Of a DNA stretch of 64,000 nucleotides, positions 8,401 through 62,171 are shown in pieces. Each line of letters begins with the position of its first letter. The first letter of the stretch is position 1. Source of the stretch: a virus. The notes under the pieces were generated by a model. That model did no database searches and was not told the DNA's origin. It saw only the letters and a list, made by a program, of their open reading frames with translations. The position numbers and the translations under genes are program-made. The DNA lies in the UHGV virus genome UHGV-0212524; one strand, written 5' to 3'.

Positions 8401-9935
8401 CGTGGTCAGATTGGGCACAAGTTTATACTGCCCGTGACAGTATTCCTGGTGTAAATACCACCGGTAATCAGGATACTACTGGCAATGCCGCTACCGCGAC
8501 GAAACTGAAAACCGCTCGCAGAATCGGCGGCGTTACCTTTGACGGTACTGGGGATATCAATTTACCGGGGGTTAACCAGCAAGGCAACCAGAATACGACA
8601 GGTAATGCAGCGACCGCTACTAAGTTACAAACAGCACGTAAGATCGGCGGTGTTAACTTTGACGGTTCGCAAGACATTAGTCTGCCCGGTGTAAACCAGA
8701 CGGGTAATCAGTCGACTACCGGAAACGCAGCCACGGCAACAAAGTTGCAGACAGCGCGTACCATTAACGGTATCGCATTTGACGGTACTAGAAATATATC
8801 GTTAGGGCCTGCCGATATAGGTTGTCCGGCTTCGCCCACTGGTTGGTTGGAGACTGGTAAAGACGGCGGCGCAATAACTACAGCACAGCTAGTGACGTTA
8901 TTGCAAAATAACGGCGCGTTTACCACAAAATCATGGGTTGCTCGCTGTGCATGGGCTTATGCTGCTAGTGCGTCCATACCGAACAGCGAGACGGGTTGTG
9001 GTGTTATTCCGTTAGCTGGGGCTGTTATAGAAGTGATTAGTAACAGCGCAAACAACTACACGATCCGTATAACGACCCCCACAACGACGAGCGTCGGCGG
9101 CGCACTCACTAATGCGGAGTTTATCTACGTAAATAACGGTGATGCTTACTCACCAGGTTGGCGTCGCGCTTACAATACGAAAAACAAGCCAACTGCTGCG
9201 GATGTTGGGGCGTTGCCATTATCTGGCGGTCAATTGAATGGTGTGCTGACGCTGCAAAATGTGAGTCAGCCTCTCAAGACGCCGGGTGGCGGCATTCTGG
9301 CAAATGATGGAAATTTATACATCAATAAGTCAGGATTTGCAGGCTGGATTGATGCGCTGTTTTTGAAGAACAGCGGCGGTACTGTCACTGGCGATTTAAC
9401 GGTTAACGGTAAACTGGTTACGAAGTATGCTGATTTCCGAATCGCTTACGGTAGCTGCGGTTTCATTTTACGTAATGATGGTGCCAATACCTATTTCTTA
9501 GTAACCGACTCCGGACAAGCCGCAACGGGTTCCTGGAACGGACTACGTCCGTTGTATTTTAATAACTCTAACGGTCAAGTAACCTTTGGTCATAACATTT
9601 CTAGCAACGGTAACGGTTCGTTTAACGACGTACAGATTCGTTCTGACCGTCGCAACAAACGTAATCTGGTGAAGCTGGATAAGGCTTTGGATCGGTTAGA
9701 AGCGCTTACCGGCTATCTGTACGAGGTTCAACATCCAGACGACGGTTGGAACACTTCGGTAGGTCTAATTGCTCAAGACGCATTAGAAGCGTTACCTGAA
9801 CTTGTGTCTGAGGATGATGATGCCATTTCAGGCGAAAAACGTTTACGTCTAAACTACAATGGCGTTATTGCGCTGTTAGTAGAGGGTATGAAAGCGTTGC
9901 GTCAAGAGGTTAACGAAATTAAAGGAAGATCCTAA
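5469..9935 (+). CDS. long tail fibre protein with tandem fibre repeats and C-terminal intramolecular chaperone domain (1488 aa)
   Basis: Ala/Thr/Gln-rich region; about six repeats of GNAATATKLQTAR.IGGV.FDGSGD.NLPGVNQQGNQNTT; near the C-terminus SDRRNKRNLVKLD matches the Ser-Asp-x-Arg-x-Lys autocleavage signature of endosialidase-type (peptidase S74) chaperone domains. Confidence 0.85.
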   Translation: MAKAVKKIRLHDLRPYTGDIGEGVLLFSKDEKDYKLPVREIVADIDTVRNAVSDAQTAATQSQEAATQATQAKNLAETAKQQTDTVAATVAQQAQTVTEKATEVGTKHTEVLAAKTAVDTQVVSVNEKAQAVAASEANVTQAVTTVTKKAETVATQAGQVEQSLTAVNEAVASVESSKAAVEATATQVTTDKETAENAATRSEAAAKRAEEIAAKGNVDATTTSKGIVRLNNTLSSDSVTEAATPSTVKQLNEDLQLKANRHNPTFTGVVKAPTPASDSNDTSVSTTAWVRQAIAELVDSSPETLDTLSEIAAALGNDPNFATTMTNQLAGKQPLSPLLTAIAAVTTAANKLPYFTGSNQVGLADFTSTARDLLAKGSTADIINFLGLKTTVDKAAGAMQRSSNGADIPDKVTFAKNIGLSAETYLKFNGEMAVDADINTFGPVEAFMGVWSKATSTNATIAKNFPEDDAVGYLEVFKAGNYSGSQRFTIRNGNVYTRRLTGTWNGTNGPWSPWRMTTTANRPLSTTIDLNTLGGVEHMGQWRNSSSSLATFDRHYPEEGGNAQGVLEVMEGGLYGRMQRYTTRRGTMYVRGLTATWDASNPQWEDWIQVGYQVDGAYYKGSFNDLTKPGRFSVTGEATDGPLTDSAGATLLGVCEVTLRLDGSGVEQNYTTYGTGATTKGRKFQRIRTGNAWSEWREIFTSYSLPLALGIGGVAAKVDPLDWQTFDFVPGQMISTPLNTMKNIPAGMDWGVIDGNLVSILVGASEDTGTGRSMLVWRGTVSTANYRFFAVRIAGEKGSRTITPRQMPVLNAAHTWAEKQTFAKGLAGELTGNASTATKLQTARRIGGVAFDGSGDVNLPGVNQQGNQNTTGNAATATKLQTARNINGVKFDGSGDININTLVGRGRVTALTGSNKGTPGIQMYEVYNNGYPTAYGNLLHLGGANALGEGELLIGWSGTSGAHAPVYIRSRRDTADAPWSDWAQVYTARDSIPGVNTTGNQDTTGNAATATKLKTARRIGGVTFDGTGDINLPGVNQQGNQNTTGNAATATKLQTARKIGGVNFDGSQDISLPGVNQTGNQSTTGNAATATKLQTARTINGIAFDGTRNISLGPADIGCPASPTGWLETGKDGGAITTAQLVTLLQNNGAFTTKSWVARCAWAYAASASIPNSETGCGVIPLAGAVIEVISNSANNYTIRITTPTTTSVGGALTNAEFIYVNNGDAYSPGWRRAYNTKNKPTAADVGALPLSGGQLNGVLTLQNVSQPLKTPGGGILANDGNLYINKSGFAGWIDALFLKNSGGTVTGDLTVNGKLVTKYADFRIAYGSCGFILRNDGANTYFLVTDSGQAATGSWNGLRPLYFNNSNGQVTFGHNISSNGNGSFNDVQIRSDRRNKRNLVKLDKALDRLEALTGYLYEVQHPDDGWNTSVGLIAQDALEALPELVSEDDDAISGEKRLRLNYNGVIALLVEGMKALRQEVNEIKGRS
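7951..8820 (+). repeat. tandem in-frame tail-fibre repeats (about 40 codons each, two blocks)
   Basis: Repeated nucleotide and protein units inside the fibre gene; the same repeats generate look-alike antisense ORFs. Confidence 0.8.
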
Positions 9936-10717
9936 TGGCAGTTGTCGGCGTAGGTGGTTGGATTGGTTCTTCAGCAAAAGCTGAAACTGGTAACGATTGG
10001 ATGTCTGGCGCGATGCGCACACTTGGTGTGCCGGTTCCAGGCTGGATGTCGCAATTGGCGGGAAAATCAAAAGAGGTTCAGTATTCGATCGGGGCTAATC
10101 ACAATTACAATAAAGATACGCTTATTAACTATTTACGTTCTATAGGCTCTAATGCTGTCGTTGTGACCATTACAGGGGATTTAGTGTCTTATAGTAGCGG
10201 GGTTCCTTGTTTAGAATTCCCTAGCAATCTTCCAAATTCGTATATTACACTCATCATCAATCCTGGGGTTACAGTATACGGCAGAGGAGGCAACGGCGGT
10301 TCTAACTCACCAGGCGGTGCAGGTGGAACCGCAATACAGAACGGAATAGGAAACAGACTGCGTATAACCAACCGTGGCGCTATTGCCGGAGGCGGTGGCG
10401 GCGGTGGCGGCGGTAACAGGGGTAGACTAATATTTGGTGGTGGCGGTGGTCGCCCATTCGGTGCTGGTGGGTCTTCCTCACATATGAGTTCCGGTGCAGC
10501 TGCTGGTACTATTTCCGCTCCTGGTAGAGGATCTGTTGGTGAGGGGTCTCTTAGTGCATATACAGGCGGTTCGGGTGGTAATGTCGGTGCTGCTGGAGGA
10601 AGATGTAATACTCATGGTAACGGTACAGAATATAACGGCGGAGCCGCTGGTGCAGCCGTTAGAGGTAATGCGCCAAGATGGGACGCAGTAGGTGCAATAT
10701 ATGGTTCACGTGTTTAA
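9935..10717 (+). CDS. glycine-rich protein, possibly fibre-associated (260 aa)
   Basis: TAATG stop/start overlap with the fibre gene; poly-Gly tracts (GGGGGGGGGNRG); N-terminus paralogous to the next gene. Confidence 0.55.
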   Translation: MAVVGVGGWIGSSAKAETGNDWMSGAMRTLGVPVPGWMSQLAGKSKEVQYSIGANHNYNKDTLINYLRSIGSNAVVVTITGDLVSYSSGVPCLEFPSNLPNSYITLIINPGVTVYGRGGNGGSNSPGGAGGTAIQNGIGNRLRITNRGAIAGGGGGGGGGNRGRLIFGGGGGRPFGAGGSSSHMSSGAAAGTISAPGRGSVGEGSLSAYTGGSGGNVGAAGGRCNTHGNGTEYNGGAAGAAVRGNAPRWDAVGAIYGSRV

Positions 10718-22888: not shown

Positions 22889-23368
22889 TTATTCTACCGG
22901 GTGCAACATAGTGCCGGTATCCGGAATGCTGCCTTCGTGACATCTGAAGAACGTTACACCTTTACCTTCACCCGTTTTGTAGTTGACGGTAGAATACGCA
23001 AACGTTGGGGTTTTCGACAGTAACCCGTTTACACGGTAATAGCGCTCACCGGTAACAACGTTTAAGTTACCGTCCACCTTGCCTAACAGGTCTTTATAAA
23101 GTTGCGGAGATTCAATTTTACCTTCGTCCCATGTAGCGACCCAATTCGCCCCTGTATCCATGACTAACACCGAAAGGGGCATCAGTTTTAGGCTAGACGG
23201 TACCGGTTTAAAATCGTCGAATTCTTGAGAAGCAGCTGTACAGGTGTAAATGACCATATCGTGTTGGTCAACAGGTACGGTGGAGAACTGACCTTCTGCG
23301 TTCGGCTGAATAGCACAACTTGCCAATGTCATTACAAAAGCAACGACCACGAGAATGCGTTTTAGCAT
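22889..23368 (-). CDS. lipoprotein (about 159 aa from internal ATG)
   Basis: MLKRILVVVAFVMTLASC gives a signal peptide with lipobox L-A-S-C; track ORF extends to 23428. Confidence 0.6.
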   Translation of the reverse strand: MLKRILVVVAFVMTLASCAIQPNAEGQFSTVPVDQHDMVIYTCTAASQEFDDFKPVPSSLKLMPLSVLVMDTGANWVATWDEGKIESPQLYKDLLGKVDGNLNVVTGERYYRVNGLLSKTPTFAYSTVNYKTGEGKGVTFFRCHEGSIPDTGTMLHPVE

Positions 23369-23506
23369 AATCTCACCCTTATTAAAATTAAGAAAAATTA
23401 ATTTTTTCAGGTTAGCGCCTACTGCCAACCGTCATATCTATATTTTAGGAAATGTCTAAAATAACATTCTTATGCAATCCACCCCTACCACTTACGAGGT
23501 AAAAAG

Positions 23507-51596: not shown

Positions 51597-51626
51597 GGTG
51601 GGGTGTAAACCCCACCTTTTTTTTGT
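51597..51626 (+). terminator. rho-independent terminator
   Basis: ggtggggtg taaa ccccacc followed by a T9 run. Confidence 0.75.
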
Positions 51627-51718: not shown

Positions 51719-52090
51719 ATGAAAAGCGAATTGTTCAAAGACCCGTTTGTTGTATTACTGATCGTTACTCGCGCTGCCACTAACCCAGAAGACCTGAAAC
51801 GTTTACTTGCCAACGAAGCATACCTTATCGAACAGCGTGACGCGCAGTTAGCCAAACCACACGCTGAAGGCCAGGTGAAAGACCTTATCTCTATTTTCCG
51901 TAACGAAGAATGGCGTAAAAACAACCAGCTGTCCGACAACCTGACGGTTGCAATTGCAAAACTCTTGACACTGTTCAATCTTGACAAAGACATTAACCAA
52001 AGCCTTTCTACAGAAGAACGTCTGGAGATGATAAGAGGTATCGGAGATAGCTATACGCAGATTAAAGCATTCCCCAACACAGTTATTTAA
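51719..52090 (+). CDS. hypothetical protein (123 aa)
   Basis: Intact ORF downstream of promoter-like copy 4. Confidence 0.55.
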   Translation: MKSELFKDPFVVLLIVTRAATNPEDLKRLLANEAYLIEQRDAQLAKPHAEGQVKDLISIFRNEEWRKNNQLSDNLTVAIAKLLTLFNLDKDINQSLSTEERLEMIRGIGDSYTQIKAFPNTVI

Positions 52091-52136
52091 TTTCATGTTT
52101 TGTGGGAACTTCCCCATAACCCGAAGGAGCATTTCA

Positions 52137-52598
52137 ATGAAAACCTTTACCACATTCTTAATAACCATTTTAACTTTCGGCCTCAATAGCGCACACGCCG
52201 CTATCAATAGCTGGGAACAAATACAAAACCCTGGCCAGGTAGTTTACGAAATCGAAGACACCGCCGGAAACGGACTGTCTATCAACTGTGACACTGAAAC
52301 TGCGAATCGCAAATTTTACGGTCGGATGGTTTGGTATTACGGGGAACCCGTAGGTGCAACTAACGCTGAAGATAACACGATGGATATTGTCGTAAACGGC
52401 AAAACCTATAACATCCCTACCGTGGACGGTAGTGACAAAGCAGAACTCGCTTGGGTTGCTTTCGTTAATGCTATCGGTAATGCCAAAACTTTCAGTGTGA
52501 GTATCAATGGTAACGATGCCGCTAACTTTACCGTAGAAGGCGATCGTTTATCTGAAACTTTCTTCCAGAACTGTGGACACACCCGTCCTAACAAATAA
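52137..52598 (+). CDS. small secreted protein 1 (about 153 aa from internal ATG)
   Basis: Signal peptide MKTFTTFLITILTFGLNSAHA; RBS aaggagc; track ORF begins at 52095. Confidence 0.55.
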   Translation: MKTFTTFLITILTFGLNSAHAAINSWEQIQNPGQVVYEIEDTAGNGLSINCDTETANRKFYGRMVWYYGEPVGATNAEDNTMDIVVNGKTYNIPTVDGSDKAELAWVAFVNAIGNAKTFSVSINGNDAANFTVEGDRLSETFFQNCGHTRPNK

Positions 52599-52620
52599 CT
52601 AATAATCTTTTTTAGAGTGC

Positions 52621-53013
52621 GTGAAAATGAATATCAGAACTATACTTTATACCATCATTATTTTCTGTGCAATCGGTATTACTGGCACTTATGCTTTCGG
52701 CGATTCGGACGTCCGCCATTACGAACCGGCTCCTGACTCACCCATTATCAACCCGGACGAGTCACCTACGTTAATGCGCAGTTTCGGTAAACTGCAAGTT
52801 TATCGCTTAGTACGCGGTGAAACGTGTACCGGATTACTCATTGCCGACACCCGTGCACAAGTCTACCAACGTCTGACGGATATCGCCTGCGAACAACCAA
52901 AAGTCATGTCGGTCAGTATTCATCCGTTAGAGGTCGGAAACTATACTGCTGTGGACTTCTTCCATAATGCAGAACTGATTGGCCGTATTACTTTAAATCG
53001 TAGCGCTGAATAA
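52621..53013 (+). CDS. small secreted protein 2 (130 aa)
   Basis: N-terminal hydrophobic signal-like segment ILYTIIIFCAIGITGTYAFG. Confidence 0.5.
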   Translation: MKMNIRTILYTIIIFCAIGITGTYAFGDSDVRHYEPAPDSPIINPDESPTLMRSFGKLQVYRLVRGETCTGLLIADTRAQVYQRLTDIACEQPKVMSVSIHPLEVGNYTAVDFFHNAELIGRITLNRSAE

Positions 53014-53031
53014 TTTAATGGAGAATTTACA

Positions 53032-53514
53032 ATGAAACGTTTACATACCCTGATGTTCTTCGTGGCTATTCTGTTCACAGGCTTTACCTTTAACGCAGAA
53101 GCGGCTACCGTAAAACAAGCACTTAGCTGTAACCCGGAAGCCTGGGCTGAACAACCTGGAGCGTGTCCTGATATCAACACACTCTATACTGACGATGCGA
53201 CTTATAAAGCCGCAATCGATAAAGCGTTGAAACCGGTCGGACTAGACGGATTATTCGGTAAAGATGGTGTAATGAATGGTCCTGGCGGCGATGTTATTCC
53301 CGTGCAAATCAACGGCAAAGTCTGGCTTGAGTCTACCGCTTGCAAAAGCAATGCTTGTGGTTGGGAATACATCACGACGCTTTATAACCCTCAGACCCAT
53401 GTCGTAGTAGGTTACTATTACAACGTCGACCCAGGTTATCTGGTTTGGTTTGGCGATATCGGCGTTAATGAATTCGCCTATCTGGTTAAGAAATACGTAG
53501 CTGCGGTTAACTAA
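53032..53514 (+). CDS. small secreted Cys-containing protein 3 (160 aa)
   Basis: Signal peptide MKRLHTLMFFVAILFTGFTFNAEA; four Cys in the mature part. Confidence 0.55.
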   Translation: MKRLHTLMFFVAILFTGFTFNAEAATVKQALSCNPEAWAEQPGACPDINTLYTDDATYKAAIDKALKPVGLDGLFGKDGVMNGPGGDVIPVQINGKVWLESTACKSNACGWEYITTLYNPQTHVVVGYYYNVDPGYLVWFGDIGVNEFAYLVKKYVAAVN

Positions 53515-53529
53515 TTTAAGGAGTCTGTC

Positions 53530-53940
53530 ATGAAAACGTTTATCAAAACTTTACTCGTTGCTGTAACTGTTCTGTTCTCTCTTAACGTAGCAGCAAAAAC
53601 AGTAAAACTACCGGCGGGTATCAAATACGTCAACAGTACCGACGAATTCTACTGCACAGAAATTGACGGTCTGTATTGCCAGACAAAGAATTTGTTTGAA
53701 TACAAAGGTAACAGGTATGTTTTCGTTGTTGAGCAAGGCGGTGCCTGGTGCTACGACAGCCCTATGTCGGTGCTCAATCTGGAAACTTGGAAAGCACAGA
53801 AAATTGAATACAAAGACAACCAACTGTGTTCAGGCGAAAACAAACCGTTCTTCAAAATCAAAAATGGTGTGCCGACTGTAGGTGTTATCGACACCTCTGG
53901 AGCACCCATCGTTGTCGCTCAGGACAAACTTAAAATCTAA
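53530..53940 (+). CDS. small secreted Cys-containing protein 4 (136 aa)
   Basis: Signal peptide MKTFIKTLLVAVTVLFSLNVAA; four Cys. Confidence 0.55.
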   Translation: MKTFIKTLLVAVTVLFSLNVAAKTVKLPAGIKYVNSTDEFYCTEIDGLYCQTKNLFEYKGNRYVFVVEQGGAWCYDSPMSVLNLETWKAQKIEYKDNQLCSGENKPFFKIKNGVPTVGVIDTSGAPIVVAQDKLKI

Positions 53941-53950
53941 GGAGTAAACC

Positions 53951-54340
53951 ATGCGTCTTATCTGCGCTTTGTTGGCGTTTTTCTCAATCGGAGTTATGGC
54001 TTCTACACACATCGACGATTTATTACTTACCCCGGCAACGAACACAGACTATCACTACAACCCACCGGGTTTTGAAGTCTGCGAAGGCGATGCAGGCGAG
54101 TGCCAAGAAGTTGGCGCAGATGGACGCTATATACTCGTAAAAGCAGACGGCGGAACAACCTGCCCTGCGGGTTATTATTTCGTACTTGACGCTGTAGCAA
54201 AAGAGGTGCTTCCTGTAACGACCAAAACGTGTGACCCCACAGTTGTACTAACGCTTGCGAAAAGCAAATCACGTGACCGTCATCTTATCGTCATCGAAGA
54301 ACGCGGTGAGATGCTAGGCGCTATCGAATTAGATTACTGA
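53951..54340 (+). CDS. small secreted Cys-containing protein 5 (129 aa)
   Basis: Signal peptide MRLICALLAFFSIGVMAS; four Cys. Confidence 0.55.
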   Translation: MRLICALLAFFSIGVMASTHIDDLLLTPATNTDYHYNPPGFEVCEGDAGECQEVGADGRYILVKADGGTTCPAGYYFVLDAVAKEVLPVTTKTCDPTVVLTLAKSKSRDRHLIVIEERGEMLGAIELDY

Positions 54341-54351
54341 TGTGTAGTCTT

Positions 54352-54390
54352 GACCCCGGTTCGTTCCGATTCGTCCGGGGTCCTTTTTAC
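54352..54390 (+). terminator. rho-independent terminator
   Basis: gaccccgg ...loop... ccggggtc followed by ctttttac. Confidence 0.6.
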
Positions 54391-54896: not shown

Positions 54897-54904
54897 TTAG
54901 CCCG

Positions 54905-54933
54905 GCCCCGCTGTGTACGGGGCTTCTTTTTTG
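54905..54933 (+). terminator. rho-independent terminator
   Basis: gccccg ctgtgta cggggc followed by ttcttttttg. Confidence 0.7.
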
Positions 54934-55625: not shown

Positions 55626-58148
55626 GTGAATATGGAGGTGGACATGTTAAAAGTTGAACGTATTGTACTTAAAGGATTTACCGGAATGGGGTTACACGAA
55701 ATCGAAACCTTCGATTTTACTATCCATTCCCCAACCACCATTATCCTCGGTGGTAACGGCTGCGGTAAGACCAGCTTACTGTCCGTGTTTCTACCTATCG
55801 CACCTTCGAAATCCGAATTCCGTGACGGGGGTTCTTACACCAATATCTGTTTGGTTAACGACCATCGTTACAAATTTAAGGTTGCACGTAAAGGCAACTC
55901 ATTGGTTTGCGATATCGAGAACCTGACGACGGGTACCAAAATCGTCGAGCAAGGTAATGCGAAAGTGTATAACTCTCGCGTAGAAGAAATCACGGGCATT
56001 ACAAAAGAGATTAAAGAGTTACTGAACGGGGAAGTGCTTTTAACGGATGCAGGAACGGAACTGCGCCGTAAGTGGTTCTACCGTTTAAGTACGTCAGACT
56101 TAACTTACGCGTTAGGTTTTTATCAACGTTTACGAAAAAACCTGACGATGCTAAACGGTGGTATTGAAATCACCAGCCGCAAGATTGCAGAGTTGCGTAC
56201 CCGCGTAATTGATAACGAAGAGGAACGTCAGCAATTAGCAACGCGGTTAAAAGCGTTAGAAGCGGATTTACGTGAACTCAACAAACAGATTGAACAACTG
56301 CCTGGTCTGAATCGTGACGTTACGGTGGCAACGATTCAATCGCTATTGCTTAAAATCGAAGCACCGATTAATGCTATCTTGGAACACCGTGGCGGATTAC
56401 CTACGGAAGAACAAGTAGAGGAAGCACGACGGATTGAAGCCACTGCCCGTGAAGCGGTGGTCTCTGCTGAAACAGAACTATCCATGCTAAACAAAGATTT
56501 GTCTTTGTTGATGGACGAGTCCACTCGCCAAGATTACCTGATGCGGAATCACGAGGGGTTAAAAAACACGGTTGCGAAACTACGCGAGTTAATAAAGCAG
56601 TGGGACACTGAGCACCTTTTCCCTGAACTGTTTGCAGAGACCGTTAACATCGACCAGCTTAAAGCAGCAACCGATGCGCGTGTCTGGGGACAACGTTTAG
56701 GAACAACACTGGATGCTATTAAGTCAACGGAGCGGTTGAACGTACTGGAAGAGAAACTGTTGACCTTAGACCAAAACTCATCTGGGTTGCGTGACAGGTT
56801 ACAGCGTGTTGAAAATGTATTGCAGAATCTCAACCACGAACGGAATCACTATTTGGAAACCGCCGAGGTTGATTGTCCGCAGTGTCAATTTAAATTCCGT
56901 CCGGGTGTCCGTCGTTCTTTGCCTGAATTGGAAGAAGCCATTCGTGGACAAATGGAGCAACGTAATACGTTACAGACTCAACTTGATTCCGTATTGCGAG
57001 ACCGTACGGAATTAGAGTCGGACGTTAATTACATGCGTCAAGTACGGGAAATCGTTTTAACATACTCGAAAGACCCGGTATTGAGTTTGTTCTTTAAACG
57101 TCTCCAGGAGCGGAATGTCTTTACGGATAACCGCAGTCAGTTTGGCAGTCTGTGCGCAGAGTTCGATCGTGAACTTTATTCCGCAATTGAGTACCACGAA
57201 ACGAAACAGCGTTTTGCTAAAGCGGAAAAAGAGTGGGAAAATGCGGTTGCAGCGGTAGGTAACGTTGACGGTGCACTACAGCAGAAAATTGCCTTCCAGC
57301 AGGAACGTTTGGGTAAGGCAACAGAAACGCTCTCAGAGCGCCGTAGAGAGCACGCAGTTGCTAATGATACCTTTTGTTATCTAAACGAACTTAAAGTCAC
57401 TGTAGACAATTTTAATGCGGTTTTTGAGCGTTTAGAGAACGACGTTAAGGTAACATTAACCAACACGGTGGTCGAAACGTTATTAAACGCCCGAGAAAAC
57501 AAGTTGGATGCGTTCACCACAGCACGGGAAAGGTACCGTCAGATGGAAAACGAACTCAACCAACTTACTGCGTTAGAAAAGGAGTTATCGGATTTACAAG
57601 CGCAGCAATTTAATAACAAGCTGATGATTCAAGCGTTCTCGCCCGAGAAAGGGGTATTACGCAAATACTTCTACAACGCTATCGTGAGAATCACAGAATT
57701 AATGACGCGATATATCGAACAAGTCTGGACCTACCCTATGCGGGTCATGCCGTGTGACTTAACCGACGGTGACTTAGACTACACGTTCCCAGTGCAGTTG
57801 AAAACTCATCCTGAACCGGTACCTGACGTGCGGAAAGGGTCGAAAGCGCAGCGGGCCATCTTTAATTTGATGTTTCGTTTAACCGCTTACAAAGCCCTGA
57901 AACTTCATCAGTATCCGCTACTGTTGGATGAACCGTCAGAAGGGATGGATGAGGAACACCGAAATAATCTTGTCGGGTTTATTAAAACCCTGGCGAATTC
58001 CGGTGAGTTCTCTCAGTTACTGGTGGTATCTCACGAAGCAGAAATTCATTCAAAACTTAACGAAGCCGCATACTGTGTTATTGAACCTGAAGGCGTAACA
58101 CTGCCTGCGGTTTACAACGAAGGAGTAAAAATTGTCTACGCAAACTGA
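55626..58148 (+). CDS. SbcC/Rad50-like SMC-family ATPase (840 aa; start may be the Met at 55644)
   Basis: N-terminal Walker A ILGGNGCGKTS; long coiled-coil middle with CPQC (zinc-hook-like); C-terminal Walker B LLLDEPSEGMD and H-loop VVSHEA. Confidence 0.7.
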   Translation: MNMEVDMLKVERIVLKGFTGMGLHEIETFDFTIHSPTTIILGGNGCGKTSLLSVFLPIAPSKSEFRDGGSYTNICLVNDHRYKFKVARKGNSLVCDIENLTTGTKIVEQGNAKVYNSRVEEITGITKEIKELLNGEVLLTDAGTELRRKWFYRLSTSDLTYALGFYQRLRKNLTMLNGGIEITSRKIAELRTRVIDNEEERQQLATRLKALEADLRELNKQIEQLPGLNRDVTVATIQSLLLKIEAPINAILEHRGGLPTEEQVEEARRIEATAREAVVSAETELSMLNKDLSLLMDESTRQDYLMRNHEGLKNTVAKLRELIKQWDTEHLFPELFAETVNIDQLKAATDARVWGQRLGTTLDAIKSTERLNVLEEKLLTLDQNSSGLRDRLQRVENVLQNLNHERNHYLETAEVDCPQCQFKFRPGVRRSLPELEEAIRGQMEQRNTLQTQLDSVLRDRTELESDVNYMRQVREIVLTYSKDPVLSLFFKRLQERNVFTDNRSQFGSLCAEFDRELYSAIEYHETKQRFAKAEKEWENAVAAVGNVDGALQQKIAFQQERLGKATETLSERRREHAVANDTFCYLNELKVTVDNFNAVFERLENDVKVTLTNTVVETLLNARENKLDAFTTARERYRQMENELNQLTALEKELSDLQAQQFNNKLMIQAFSPEKGVLRKYFYNAIVRITELMTRYIEQVWTYPMRVMPCDLTDGDLDYTFPVQLKTHPEPVPDVRKGSKAQRAIFNLMFRLTAYKALKLHQYPLLLDEPSEGMDEEHRNNLVGFIKTLANSGEFSQLLVVSHEAEIHSKLNEAAYCVIEPEGVTLPAVYNEGVKIVYAN

Positions 58149-58332
58149 TTGGTGGCGTCAGTTACTAAGCGTTTTAGGGTTTAGCGTCATGGTGCTGGTT
58201 GCCATTCTGTACGTGCTATTTTGTATAACGGCGATTTTATGGGTGGTCTTAGCGTACGCGATTAGACTCGCCTGGGGTTCAATTTGGCACCAACGCGAAT
58301 GTGAGTGGCGGTGTGTTGGAGGGAAGTCATGA
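58132..58332 (+). CDS. small membrane protein (66 aa)
   Basis: Hydrophobic segments LLSVLGFSVMVLVAILYVLFCITAILWVVLAYAI; overlaps the upstream stop. Confidence 0.5.
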   Translation: MSTQTDWWRQLLSVLGFSVMVLVAILYVLFCITAILWVVLAYAIRLAWGSIWHQRECEWRCVGGKS

Positions 58333-58650: not shown

Positions 58651-59094
58651 ATGGAAATTTATTTGTTGAACGCACTTTCTAAAATCGGTGAAGAACAAGC
58701 GAAAGATTTACTCGCACTCCATTACCGTTACTTAGATCACCAAGCAACGATGCTGAAAATCAAAACCGCTGTACCGAAATTAAACGTGCGTCAACTGATC
58801 GAAGGCAACTGTGTTGTTCTGATTTATATCGACGATGTTGCGGTAGGTTATTGCAGTTACCGTAATCGCAACGGGGTACTCAAAATTCGTTCGTTATACG
58901 TGCTGCCTGATTACCGTCAGCGCGGGGTAATGAAAGAAATCTTCAAAGCGATAGCCGCTGATGAAGCATTCGGTGAAATTGCCATTGGGATGTACACGAA
59001 GTGCAAAGAAGCGAAAGAGTATTTCATTCGTCGTGGCTACAAAGCAACCTATTCTCACGATAAAGAATGGGTGGATTTCAGCAAAACTTTCTAA
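58651..59094 (+). CDS. GNAT family N-acetyltransferase (147 aa)
   Basis: LYVLPDYRQRGVMKEIF fits the GNAT acetyl-CoA-binding motif A (V..yR..G.g..L), preceded by a beta-strand-like VVLIYIDDVAVGYCSY. Confidence 0.6.
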   Translation: MEIYLLNALSKIGEEQAKDLLALHYRYLDHQATMLKIKTAVPKLNVRQLIEGNCVVLIYIDDVAVGYCSYRNRNGVLKIRSLYVLPDYRQRGVMKEIFKAIAADEAFGEIAIGMYTKCKEAKEYFIRRGYKATYSHDKEWVDFSKTF

Positions 59095-59810: not shown

Positions 59811-60335
59811 ATGCTTACCTCACTCGGTAAGACCGTTATGCTAACGATACTTCCAGAATCGGTTATTGACAACGACCTGTTTAACGCCCCTGAGCGCTTC
59901 AAGGTCGTTACGATAAATTGCGTAGGGGCAATGGGTCGGGGTATCGCTTTAGCGTGCAGAGAACGCTATCCTGAGCTTTATCAGGACTACCGAGAACGTT
60001 GCTTCGCTAACGAAATACGAATAGGGAATGTGTACGTTTATCCCGAGGAAAACTGCATTCTCTTACCAACAAAAACACATTGGAAACTGAAATCCCAGGT
60101 TTCTTATGTTATCGCGGGTATCACCGCGTTGGCAGATGCCGCAGAAAACTTAGAGGGTGGGGTGGCTTTACCGCCGTTAGGGATGGCTAACGGTTGGTTG
60201 ACAAAAGCTGAACGTCAACAAATCTTTTTGTTTATCGAAAAGAAACTCGTACCAAGGAGACAACAATACTGTTTCTATTTACCCGATACGCTTTACCAAG
60301 AAGCAAAACCTTTAATTCCAAACCTTTTTAAATAG
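59811..60335 (+). CDS. macrodomain protein, TARG1/DarG-type (174 aa; alternative start at 59838)
   Basis: DLFNAPERFKVVTINCVGAMGRGIALACRERYPELYQDY matches the recalled GDLF...VNCVGVMGKGIA..FK..YPE signature of TARG1/DarG-type (Macro_2) macrodomains. Confidence 0.6.
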   Translation: MLTSLGKTVMLTILPESVIDNDLFNAPERFKVVTINCVGAMGRGIALACRERYPELYQDYRERCFANEIRIGNVYVYPEENCILLPTKTHWKLKSQVSYVIAGITALADAAENLEGGVALPPLGMANGWLTKAERQQIFLFIEKKLVPRRQQYCFYLPDTLYQEAKPLIPNLFK

Positions 60336-60408: not shown

Positions 60409-61122
60409 ATGTATAAATCCAACTGGAGAACTAGTATGTTTCGTATTTTCTTTCTTTTACTGGTAACACTTTTCGCGTTTAACGCATACGCATCCAAATC
60501 CGCGCCCAATGCCAAACACCATCGTGAATTCGAAATGATTCAAGACCGTTTCGAACGGGTAAAACCGTTGATTGTGGAAATCTCTCGAAAGCAGGGTGTC
60601 GATCCTAATTTGATGACCACGCTAATCTATCGAGAGTCACGGTTTAATCCGAAGGCGTATAATCGAACGTCTAAAGCGCACAGTCTGGTTCAGATGCTAC
60701 CGAGCACAAAGCGCAATTTGCTAAAACTCTACGGTGCCGAAATCGGACTTAGTCGCAATGCGGATTTGTACAATCCTCGTAATGCGGTGCTATTGGCTTC
60801 CGTCTACGTTAAACATTTAGAAAAGGGGTTGACTAAACGACTCAAACGCAAGCCCACTATTGCAGAAATTGCATTGGCTTATCACTGGGGTGAAAGTGGT
60901 GCACACGCCAGGATTAAAAGCAAGTCTCGGGCAGCACAACGAGAAATGGCGAGCTTTATGAAAGATGCAACGTTCTACAGTGCGAAAATCGACAAGCCTG
61001 TAGCATCTCGTCAGCTTGCGTTTGCGAAGAAACCAGAACGCCAGATTCAGTTAGCGGAAGTTAACCGAATTTGGGATACGATAAACACCAGTTTTCCATT
61101 TAAACAAGGAGTCACCCTTTGA
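60409..61122 (+). CDS. secreted lytic transglycosylase, SLT domain (237 aa)
   Basis: Signal peptide FRIFFLLLVTLFAFNAYA; LIYRESRFNPKAYNRTSKAHSLVQMLPST fits the SLT motif with catalytic Glu (E-S...A.S.....G..Q). Confidence 0.65.
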   Translation: MYKSNWRTSMFRIFFLLLVTLFAFNAYASKSAPNAKHHREFEMIQDRFERVKPLIVEISRKQGVDPNLMTTLIYRESRFNPKAYNRTSKAHSLVQMLPSTKRNLLKLYGAEIGLSRNADLYNPRNAVLLASVYVKHLEKGLTKRLKRKPTIAEIALAYHWGESGAHARIKSKSRAAQREMASFMKDATFYSAKIDKPVASRQLAFAKKPERQIQLAEVNRIWDTINTSFPFKQGVTL

Positions 61123-61691: not shown

Positions 61692-62171
61692 ATGTTGAAG
61701 TTTATCTGGCGTTACCCAACCCGCTTTTGGTTCGTGGTATTAGAGGTAGTCACCGTTCTACTGTTAGTGACGTTCGTAAACGTCCCTACGAAACAAATGG
61801 TGATTTTCTGCGTATTCGTGGCTATACCGCTGTGGGTGTTTGCAAAGATTATTAAGTTTTGCATGATAAGCTGGGCGAACTACACCTGTCCATTTAAACC
61901 CAGAGAAATCATGAATTGGCTGATGTATATCGAAGACCGTTTACCCGCTCAGTCTAAAACACTGGGCTGGGAATCGATGTTGGATATTGCGCTAGAAACG
62001 AATGCAAAATTCCCTGGGTCAAAGAATCCTTATTTGTTGCTGGCTGTTATTGTTGCTCAGCAGAAACGTGCGGGTGAGCGCTGGTTACCGGAAGAAGCGA
62101 AAGACTATATTCGTAAGCACCCGAAAGCTTTCTATTCCGTAGGTCAATGGCGTAACCTCCCACTTTTCTAA
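61692..62171 (+). CDS. membrane protein with two predicted TM helices (159 aa)
   Basis: FWFVVLEVVTVLLLVTFV and MVIFCVFVAIPLWVFAKII hydrophobic helices. Confidence 0.5.
   Translation: MLKFIWRYPTRFWFVVLEVVTVLLLVTFVNVPTKQMVIFCVFVAIPLWVFAKIIKFCMISWANYTCPFKPREIMNWLMYIEDRLPAQSKTLGWESMLDIALETNAKFPGSKNPYLLLAVIVAQQKRAGERWLPEEAKDYIRKHPKAFYSVGQWRNLPLF

Follow-up and report, generated by a model that had tools for sequence, protein, structure and literature searches.

Introduction

What would a large virulent phage gain from a row of small secreted proteins, and on which partners in the cell envelope would such proteins act? This question is raised by five consecutive genes, here named p1 to p5, of the UHGV virus genome UHGV-0212524, of which a stretch of 64,000 nucleotides (hereafter the window) was analyzed computationally. 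An original prediction made from this DNA had placed five small secreted proteins at positions 52137-54340; the genes lie exactly there, adjacent to each other on the + strand, and encode 129–160 residues each. Phage periplasmic proteins are rarely characterized, and those that are known, such as T4 Spackle, control entry into or exit from the cell. By analogy with such proteins, p1–p5 are read here, tentatively and at somewhat less than an even chance, as a non-virion accessory cassette that protects the sacculus or envelope against muralytic enzymes, i.e., as a system of superinfection exclusion or defense. The testable handle is p3, the Ivy-like fold of which suggests inhibition of a muralytic enzyme.

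Export Signals and Cysteines of p1–p5

The N-terminus of each protein, inspected by rule, comprises a K/R-containing n-region, a hydrophobic core, and a site that fits the −3,−1 rule, as predicted for the Sec-type signal peptides originally assigned to all five. The predicted cleavage sites are AHA↓A for p1, TYA↓F for p2, AEA↓A for p3, VAA↓K for p4, and VMA↓S for p5, so that the signal peptides of p1, p3, p4, and p5 would comprise residues 1–21, 1–24, 1–22, and 1–17, respectively. In p1 and p2 the core is rich in Thr, and both proteins failed a stricter signal-peptide heuristic; the hydrophobic stretch of p2, which is approximately 19 residues long, could also make an uncleaved signal anchor. 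A proper lipobox was found in none of p1–p5. A lipoprotein reading of p2 and p5 was rejected, as the Cys in their hydrophobic region does not fit a lipobox (IIFC in p2); AXA-type sites with no Cys at +1 were found for p4 and p5.

The mature parts of p1–p5 contain 2, 2, 4, 4, and 4 Cys, always an even number, which agrees with the four Cys originally counted in p3–p5 and adds a conserved pair in each of p1 and p2. They are located at positions 51 and 146 of p1, 69 and 90 of p2, 33, 45, 104, and 109 of p3, 42, 50, 74, and 100 of p4, and 44, 51, 71, and 94 of p5, and these positions are invariant or nearly so among aligned homologues. The Cys density of the mature proteins is 1.5–3.6%, compared with 1.29% in the other open reading frames (ORFs) of the window. 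A signal-peptide-like N-terminus occurs in just 2 of the 57 other ORFs of at least 100 residues, the signal peptides are kept in homologues of 10 related phages, and all five genes are under purifying selection, with a ratio of nonsynonymous to synonymous substitution rates (dN/dS) of 0.04–0.21. For these three reasons, the run of five genes is regarded as real and not as a chance arrangement, and its products look exported and disulfide-bonded.

Conservation in SPN3US-like Jumbo Phages

Sequence comparison assigns the window to a new SPN3US-like jumbo phage of Enterobacteria of about 222 kb, a new relative in the SPN3US/phiEaH2/Machina group of ~240-kb jumbo phages; its SbcC/SMC-like gene (55626-58148) shares 66–72% nucleotide identity with the counterparts in these three phages. 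IMG/VR contains 220–226 kb contigs of near-identical phages (p5 99% identical) and of sister phages (p5 ~80%). GenBank contains the exact p1 and p3 sequences under a metagenome-assembled genome of Caudoviricetes with third-party annotation. One copy of this phage type has been deposited as a circular “plasmid” of 221,873 bp from a urinary E. coli isolate (L003, NZ_CP173450.1); it covers 85% of window positions 1-25000 at 93.8% identity. Assemblies of E. coli, Shigella flexneri, and several Salmonella serovar isolates also include contigs of this type, 221–226 kb long. Such isolate-assembly and plasmid records suggest a carrier state or pseudolysogeny, and a host range of several genera.

All SPN3US-like phages examined carry, in the syntenic position, 3–4 signal-peptide genes in a row whose products share the same Cys pattern; the site is located upstream of two conserved genes and the SbcC-like gene, and this arrangement holds in 11 loci. 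Examples are gp180–183 of SPN3US, four genes of phiEaH2 (AFQ96649-52), and gp192–194 of Machina; four such genes were also found in a divergent 239-kb metagenomic phage, and homologues of p5 are present in 53 phage records. A run of this kind, which had been thought to be rare among phages, is hence not peculiar to the present one. Gene by gene, p2 corresponds to SPN3US gp180 (50% identical), p4 to gp182, and p5 to gp183, while p3 occupies the slot of gp181, a fourth paralogue. When a collection of 50,697 phage records was searched with tblastn, neither p1 nor p3 gave a match. These comparisons indicate that p1 and p3 are additions in this phage lineage.

The virion mass-spectrometry table of SPN3US passes from gp173 to gp193 and lists none of gp180–183 (PMC5105663 Table S4). 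The cassette is therefore considered to be non-virion, as judged from the SPN3US homologues rather than from particles of this phage; a role as virion components, the finding that was to count against the original prediction, did not emerge. In the SPN3US papers, gp180–183 go unmentioned in the main text. None of p1–p5 matched the PADLOC models of known defense or exclusion proteins. The literature searched contains no prior account of the cassette as a conserved paralogous secreted set in SPN3US-like jumbo phages, nor of its relation to YfjS/YfjT or its partial capture by E. coli islands, both of which are described below.

Ivy-like Features of p3

Profile alignments and a structural model indicate that p3 is a divergent periplasmic protein of the Ivy family, with an Ivy-like fold and loop. 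Its export is predicted from the N-terminus MKRLHTLMFFVAILFTGFTFNAEA↓A, and by the same rule-based prediction all alleles share this signal. Known members of the family are E. coli ykfE/ivy and P. aeruginosa Ivyp1 and Ivyp2, with the PDB entries 1gpq, 1xs0, and 1uuz. p3 matched the Pfam model Ivy (PF08816) with an E-value of 0.025 (15.2 bits) and the NCBIfam model Ivy (NF007443) with 5.4e-4 (19.8 bits), and hhalign against E. coli Ivy gave 3e-4. The model structure of p3 shows the antiparallel β-sheet flanked by helices that characterizes the Ivy fold. In both the hmmsearch and the hhalign alignments, the p3 loop ACKSNACG is placed residue for residue on ACKPHDCG of Ivy, with the Cys pair C-x4-C at the conserved position of Ivy. 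Both Cys are invariant in 16 p3 alleles, of which those of phages read CKSNAC or CKANAC and those of E. coli islands CKANAC, CKANTC, or CKAHAC, leaving the K and the two Cys as the only constants of the loop.

A weak PHROG match of p3, phrog_13619, is defined by E. coli Ivy, and an independent third-party annotation of the identical sequence is also Ivy. The Ivy-like nature of p3 was thus already flagged by automated annotation, and Ivy is a known family. Canonical Ivy occurs in 1 of the 50,697 phage records, and a Foldseek search of the p3 model against the predicted viral structures of BFVD gave nothing at E <0.1.

The p2, p4, and p5 Family and p1

The remaining secreted proteins fall into two groups, one of which comprises p2, p4, and p5. 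Family profiles indicate that these three are paralogues and form one family of small secreted β-proteins, of which p5 is a predicted secreted all-β protein. The family of p4 and gp181 aligned with that of p5 at 97.3% hhalign probability (E 1.7e-11); p4, which matches phrog_8968 at 1e-37, appears as a paralogue of both p5 and SPN3US gp181. Between the p2 and p5 families, hhalign gave 51% (E 1.5e-4) with both Cys aligned, so p2 and p5 are probably distant paralogues; the PHROG matches of p2 are phrog_9424 (6e-42) and, weakly, phrog_5248. Two Cys are invariant over 34 aligned sequences of the family. A search of 1.84 billion representative proteins with a hidden Markov model (HMM) of the p5 profile retrieved 15 matches, indicating that the family is rare. 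Two library proteins (P0048 and P0053) consist of peptides of SPN3US gp183 in shuffled order and are probably artefacts or decoys.

This family is probably related, at a distance at which homology is not proven, to the E. coli lipoproteins YfjS and YafY. The p5 family aligned with the YfjS family at 72% hhalign probability (E 3.4e-5) over 90 columns, in which the motifs PP.F and C.GYY and that of the second Cys are matched, and YfjS matches phrog_5248, the PHROG of p5, at 4.2e-5; p2 matched YfjS weakly (E 0.028). The Pfam model YfjS_YafY (PF20494) scored YfjS and YafY only and, at E <1, none of the 32 p2-, p4-, and p5-family members from phages or metagenomes, so that the link consists of the profile–profile and PHROG evidence. 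YfjS was not retrieved by the p5-profile search of 1.84 billion proteins, and the lipobox of YfjS and YafY (LSAC or LIAC, then D) was not found in p2, p4, or p5. A PDB sequence-profile search with the p5 family gave nothing. Of the inhibitor folds that had been proposed for the cassette, the Ivy type is supported by the fold and loop of p3; the MliC/PliC type was not matched by p5, which exhibited neither the eight-stranded β-barrel nor a Pfam MliC match.

p1 is a predicted secreted homologue of E. coli YfjT and YkfB. It aligned with YfjT over 133 residues in BLASTP (E 5e-14) and with YfjT/YkfB in hhalign (97.2% probability, E 3e-11), and in the alignment p1 shares C51, C146, and the motifs W26, INC, and Y.IP with YfjT. 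Both p1 and YfjT match phrog_3429, the PHROG of this family, which is without a Pfam model. Against PDB sequence profiles, p1 and YfjT gave just immunoglobulin V domains at E 0.03 or worse, which were dismissed as non-significant. Apart from the activation of Cpx by YafY, no functional study of YfjS, YfjT, YafY, or YkfB was found in the literature.

Sharing with CP4-type Islands of E. coli

DNA alignments identified a block that is shared between the cassette and CP4-type islands of E. coli with the same gene order and spacers (Table 1). It starts at codon 8 of p2, the island copy of which is decayed, and continues through p3 and p4 to the ribosome-binding site and the first ~20 nucleotides of p5. 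This sharing of p2, p3, and p4, the paralogy of p2, p4, and p5, and the relation of p1 and p5 to yfjT and yfjS had been missed in the original prediction. A p3 match was found in 2333 of 5426 complete E. coli genomes (43%). The copy in strain 2452 is 94% identical in nucleotides and 96% in protein, and its synonymous distance to p3 (dS 0.23) is about that of the copy in a phage of the same species (0.17); a dN/dS of 0.08 between phage and chromosome indicates purifying selection. p4 is 76% identical to an island protein of the same length, the E. coli cluster of which has 1133 members. p2 is present in 237 chromosomes (238 genomes including a phage-like plasmid record) at 74% nucleotide identity, and its chromosomal copy is frameshifted in the strain examined. 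p5 gave no chromosomal DNA match in E. coli genomes, where its ribosome-binding site and first codons alone remain in the islands.

The simplest account of these alignments is a transfer from phage to island, followed by the decay of p2 and p5 and the retention of p3 and p4. This direction is favored because p2, p4, and p5 make a syntenic core in phages of multiple host genera and because the G + C content of the E. coli copies (41–46%) is phage-like. E. coli as the donor of the whole block was considered unlikely on the same grounds, together with the frameshift in p2 and the stub of p5; the core is found in Erwinia and Salmonella phages. Between sister phages with 80% identity in p5, the p3 alleles are just 63–66% identical, and one phage allele is 96–97% identical to a chromosomal one. 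As the p3 genes of sister phages are far more divergent than their p5 genes and the alleles are intermixed, p3 alleles appear to have been exchanged repeatedly. Their variable positions cluster in the N-terminal region, ahead of the loop, and within it; such turnover is typical of interaction surfaces.

Within the islands, the shared block is flanked on one side by a set of GTPase, dynamin, RdcB-like, and patatin genes and on the other by DUF932, antirestriction, RadC, DUF987, and CbtA–CbeA genes. The former set, located upstream of p3 and p4 in the island locus L002 (2215-7670) and comprising GTPase, dynamin-family, RdcB-like, and patatin-like phospholipase genes, may be a defense-like module; it gave weak PADLOC matches to LeoBC/LeoA and phospholipase-effector models (E 1e-8 to 1e-4). 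A small ORF with a signal peptide precedes the p2/p3 copies, with ~65 residues in L002 (7806-8000; MKLPVKLLMSLISLVSVIARAGEYKNY...) and 84 residues in another island locus (L019, 5388-5642), and in strain 2452 such an ORF is annotated in-frame with p3 as one coding sequence of 225 residues. This island slot seems to collect small exported proteins.

Arrangement of the Locus and Neighboring Genes

The five genes are co-oriented and tightly packed, with gaps of 10–22 nucleotides. Shine–Dalgarno sequences are good for p1, p3, p4, and p5 and weak for p2, and for p1 the ATG at 52137, which is preceded by gaaggag, is preferable to the first ATG of the ORF at 52095. The positions of the genes and of the other features are summarized in Table 1. 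Between the upstream terminator-like hairpin and the cassette lies a variable gene (51719-52090, + strand) for a non-secreted protein of 123 residues that matches phrog_27024. It is present in this phage and in the locus L010 and missing from the otherwise collinear loci L007 and L009, which makes an indel polymorphism at the edge of the cassette.

Table 1. Positions in the window of the cassette genes and of features discussed with them.
Feature	Positions	Strand	Remarks
p1	52137-52598	+	153 aa
p2	52621-53013	+	130 aa; GTG start
p3	53032-53514	+	160 aa
Codons of the p3 loop C104-K-S-N-A-C109	53341-53358	+	counterpart of the inhibitory loop CKPHDC of Ivy
p4	53530-53940	+	136 aa
p5	53951-54340	+	129 aa
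Block shared with CP4-type E. coli islands	52641-53970 (about)	+	DNA alignments; same gene order and spacers
Terminator-like hairpin, strong, intrinsic type	51597-51616	+	8 bp (6 G-C), then T8; ends the upstream transcription unit
Terminator-like hairpin, weak	54363-54381	+	directly after p5; terminator scan
Terminator-like hairpin, strong	54904-54924	+	after the gene that follows p5; terminator scan
SLT lytic transglycosylase, putative endolysin	60409-61122	+	outside the cassette; 237 aa; predicted signal peptide (MFRIFFLLLVTLFAFNAYA↓SKS); “ES” catalytic motif

The predicted SLT protein of the window matches the Pfam model SLT above its cut-off (E 3.3e-14) and phrog_4067 (“transglycosylase”, 5.6e-47), and its homologue in the relatives is annotated as a putative endolysin. 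A candidate holin, a protein with two hydrophobic segments, is encoded two genes further on (61692-62171, + strand). For a jumbo phage with an exported soluble endolysin, one has to ask how the enzyme is kept in check. Besides the SLT protein, the only exported-looking ORF of the window outside the cassette is 22889-23428 (− strand), in which an internal Met start gives the lipoprotein-type N-terminus MLKRILVVVAFVMTLASC with the lipobox LASC; it matches phrog_9559. Three genes on the + strand lie between the SbcC-like and SLT genes (58651-59094, 59811-60335, and 58132-58332). They comprise a GNAT acetyltransferase, an ORF that weakly resembles a macro domain (Pfam E 6e-4, under the cut-off), and an ORF of 66 residues that contains a long hydrophobic stretch and takes the place of SPN3US gp187, a small transmembrane protein according to the SPN3US paper.

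In another part of the window, a tail-fiber or receptor-recognizing region (8589-10676, + strand) shares 81–84% nucleotide identity with tail-fiber genes on E. coli plasmid records. These records are about 106–139 kb long, carry phage tail genes, and are possibly phage-plasmids; the identity suggests that receptor-binding modules have been exchanged between the jumbo phage and plasmid-like elements.

Proposed Function and Alternatives

In the favored reading, the products of p1–p5 would be exported by Sec to the periplasm of the infected or carrier cell and stabilized by disulfides. By analogy with Ivy, the loop CKSNAC of p3 would be inserted into the active-site cleft of a lysozyme-like or lytic transglycosylase enzyme and block peptidoglycan cleavage there, while p1, p2, p4, and p5 may be further periplasmic binding proteins with different targets. 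The occupied cell would be shielded from peptidoglycan-degrading enzymes of external origin, chiefly the tail lysins that superinfecting phages bring along, in the manner of T4 Spackle, which is made early, acts in the periplasm as an inhibitor of the gp5 tail lysozyme, and so excludes superinfecting phage (PMC7677548). CP4-type islands with captured p2, p3, and p4 would use the same activity. Export, inhibitory activity, targets, and phenotype are what we infer here. Ivy proteins inhibit C-type lysozyme and P. aeruginosa MltB, and weakly E. coli MltA/B (PMC10139938). In the islands, p3 and p4 stand among antirestriction, RadC, and CbtA/CbeA genes and the weakly Leo-like dynamin/patatin set; protection of the sacculus is favored because the pair is kept intact in islands in whose annotated parts no lysis genes were seen, in the company of antirestriction, toxin–antitoxin, and weakly defense-like genes. 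The phage contigs in isolate assemblies are consistent with long residence, in which host-protecting genes would pay off.

Several observations weigh against this reading. The p3 model is of moderate confidence, with a mean predicted local distance difference test (pLDDT) score of 63 and values below 50 for loop residues 105–110, and the p3 scores lie under both the Pfam cut-off of 21 bits and the NCBIfam equivalog cut-off of 180. The loop departs from the Ivy consensus CKPHDC, in which the central His is presumably the key contact with lysozyme and needed for inhibition of the C-type enzyme; phage p3 has Asn at this position. p5 is without similarity to any known inhibitor fold. The core of p2, p4, and p5 is present in phages that have no p3, and an Ivy-like function is therefore not the ancestral one of the cassette. 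The window also encodes an exported-type SLT endolysin, so that lysis control directed inward is the obvious alternative: the cassette, or at least p3, would act as an anti-endolysin that holds the phage's own transglycosylase inactive in the periplasm until a trigger. An exported soluble muralytic enzyme needs restraint, Ivy-family proteins are able to inhibit lytic transglycosylases, and the SLT protein is a candidate target of p3; moreover, SPN3US-like phages have kept both the cassette of secreted proteins and the SLT gene, downstream of which lies that of the protein with two hydrophobic segments. Lysis control is nevertheless rather unlikely, as most phages with the same SLT endolysin have no p3, and the cassette is separated from the SLT gene by 6 kb containing strong terminators and unrelated genes. 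p3 and p4 are also intact in E. coli islands, the annotated stretches of which, as far as examined, show no endolysin or holin, which argues against a purely lysis-regulating role.

Shielding of the sacculus may also be directed against attackers other than phages, such as animal lysozyme or the periplasm-acting toxins of competitors (muramidase or amidase effectors of the type VI secretion system, bacteriocins), and would then raise the fitness of the carrier in the gut. Lysozyme inhibition is what the namesake of the Ivy family does, the phage is human-associated and found in clinical and enteric isolates, p3 is retained in 43% of complete E. coli genomes, and small periplasmic proteins in a run are reminiscent of orphan immunity-gene arrays. 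This is judged unlikely, since the phage allele lacks the loop His to which we ascribe lysozyme contact, none of p1–p5 matched a known immunity family in Pfam, NCBIfam, or PDB, and the ancestral cassette occurs in virulent jumbo phages of the plant pathogen Erwinia, to which animal lysozyme is irrelevant. Improbable to a slightly greater degree is a manipulation of envelope stress, in which the YfjS/YafY-like p2, p4, and p5 act on Cpx/Rcs sensors with p3 and p1 as accessories. YafY is one of just two among 90 E. coli lipoproteins that activate Cpx on overproduction (PMC6538781), p5 is probably related to YfjS/YafY, and Ivy is a protein of the Rcs regulon (PMC10139938); however, the p5–YfjS link has moderate support, being missed by the Pfam model and in the search of 1.84 billion proteins. 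Moreover, YafY has a lipid anchor that is not present in the phage proteins, and Cpx activation on overproduction may be non-specific. The cassette might finally not be periplasmic at all: membrane and protein compartments are made by the phiKZ-related group, of which the SPN3US-like phages are part, and since export is a prediction, p1–p5 may instead be targeted to a phage-specific compartment, such as the membrane or lumen of the early-infection vesicle of nucleus-forming phages, take part in virion assembly, or be minor virion components. We give this very little credence. The virion table of SPN3US is devoid of gp180–183, the conserved even Cys numbers fit an oxidizing compartment, p3 and p4 are maintained in E. 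coli chromosomes, where phage compartments do not exist, and in uninfected cells Ivy, YfjS, and YfjT belong to the envelope.

Protection of the sacculus can be extended to a broader proposal, which we regard as doubtful: the cassette would be an envelope immunity module born in jumbo phages and captured in part (p2, p3, and p4) by CP4-type islands, through which it would now be present in about 40% of E. coli genomes, with p3 as a dedicated inhibitor of the lytic transglycosylases or lysozymes that phages bring (tail lysins and exported endolysins) and the YfjS/YfjT-like proteins as further inhibitors with other targets in the periplasm. If true, it would define a new and widespread class of periplasmic anti-phage or superinfection-exclusion proteins common to a virulent phage lineage and its host, and would give a first function to the y-genes yfjS/yfjT and yafY/ykfB. 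The island link was unexpected and ties a virulent-phage module to a large block of the E. coli y-ome. Should p3 block phage lysins or transglycosylases, this would matter for host range in phage therapy and explain the wide retention of the island genes.

Comparison with Known Systems

Direct counterparts of p2, p4, and p5 are the syntenic proteins of SPN3US, phiEaH2, and Machina, which are 29–52% identical, share PHROGs 9424, 8968, and 5248, and are all annotated as hypothetical. These phages differ in being without p1 and p3; SPN3US and phiEaH2 have a gp181-type paralogue in the p3 slot. p3 resembles Ivy as a small, predicted periplasmic protein with a Sec signal and a C-x4-C disulfide-type loop at the aligned position, and motifs around the loop (ACK..CG) and after it are common to both. 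It differs in its low identity (~10–13% in the structural alignment and ~21% in hhalign), in an additional stretch at the N-terminus that bears another Cys pair (C33 and C45), and in its location on a jumbo phage and mobile islands, whereas Ivy is a core chromosomal locus. The other inhibitors MliC/PliC, PliI, and PliG are, like the cassette proteins, small periplasmic or lipoprotein β-proteins with a disulfide.

In E. coli K-12, the pairs yfjS–yfjT (CP4-57) and yafY–ykfB (CP4-6) place adjacent to each other the same two envelope-targeted families as p5 and p1. The mobile elements concerned are of the type in which the E. coli copies of p2, p3, and p4 are found, although the gene order is unlike that of the cassette. 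p5 shares phrog_5248 and the same two Cys with YfjS/YafY, which are inner-membrane lipoproteins with a lipobox, whereas the phage proteins have signal-peptidase-I-type sites. T4 Spackle (gp61.3) is likewise a small phage protein with a signal peptide and provides the analogy of action proposed for p3; it is encoded by a single gene rather than a paralogous cassette, and the likeness does not extend to sequence similarity, which was neither detected nor is claimed.

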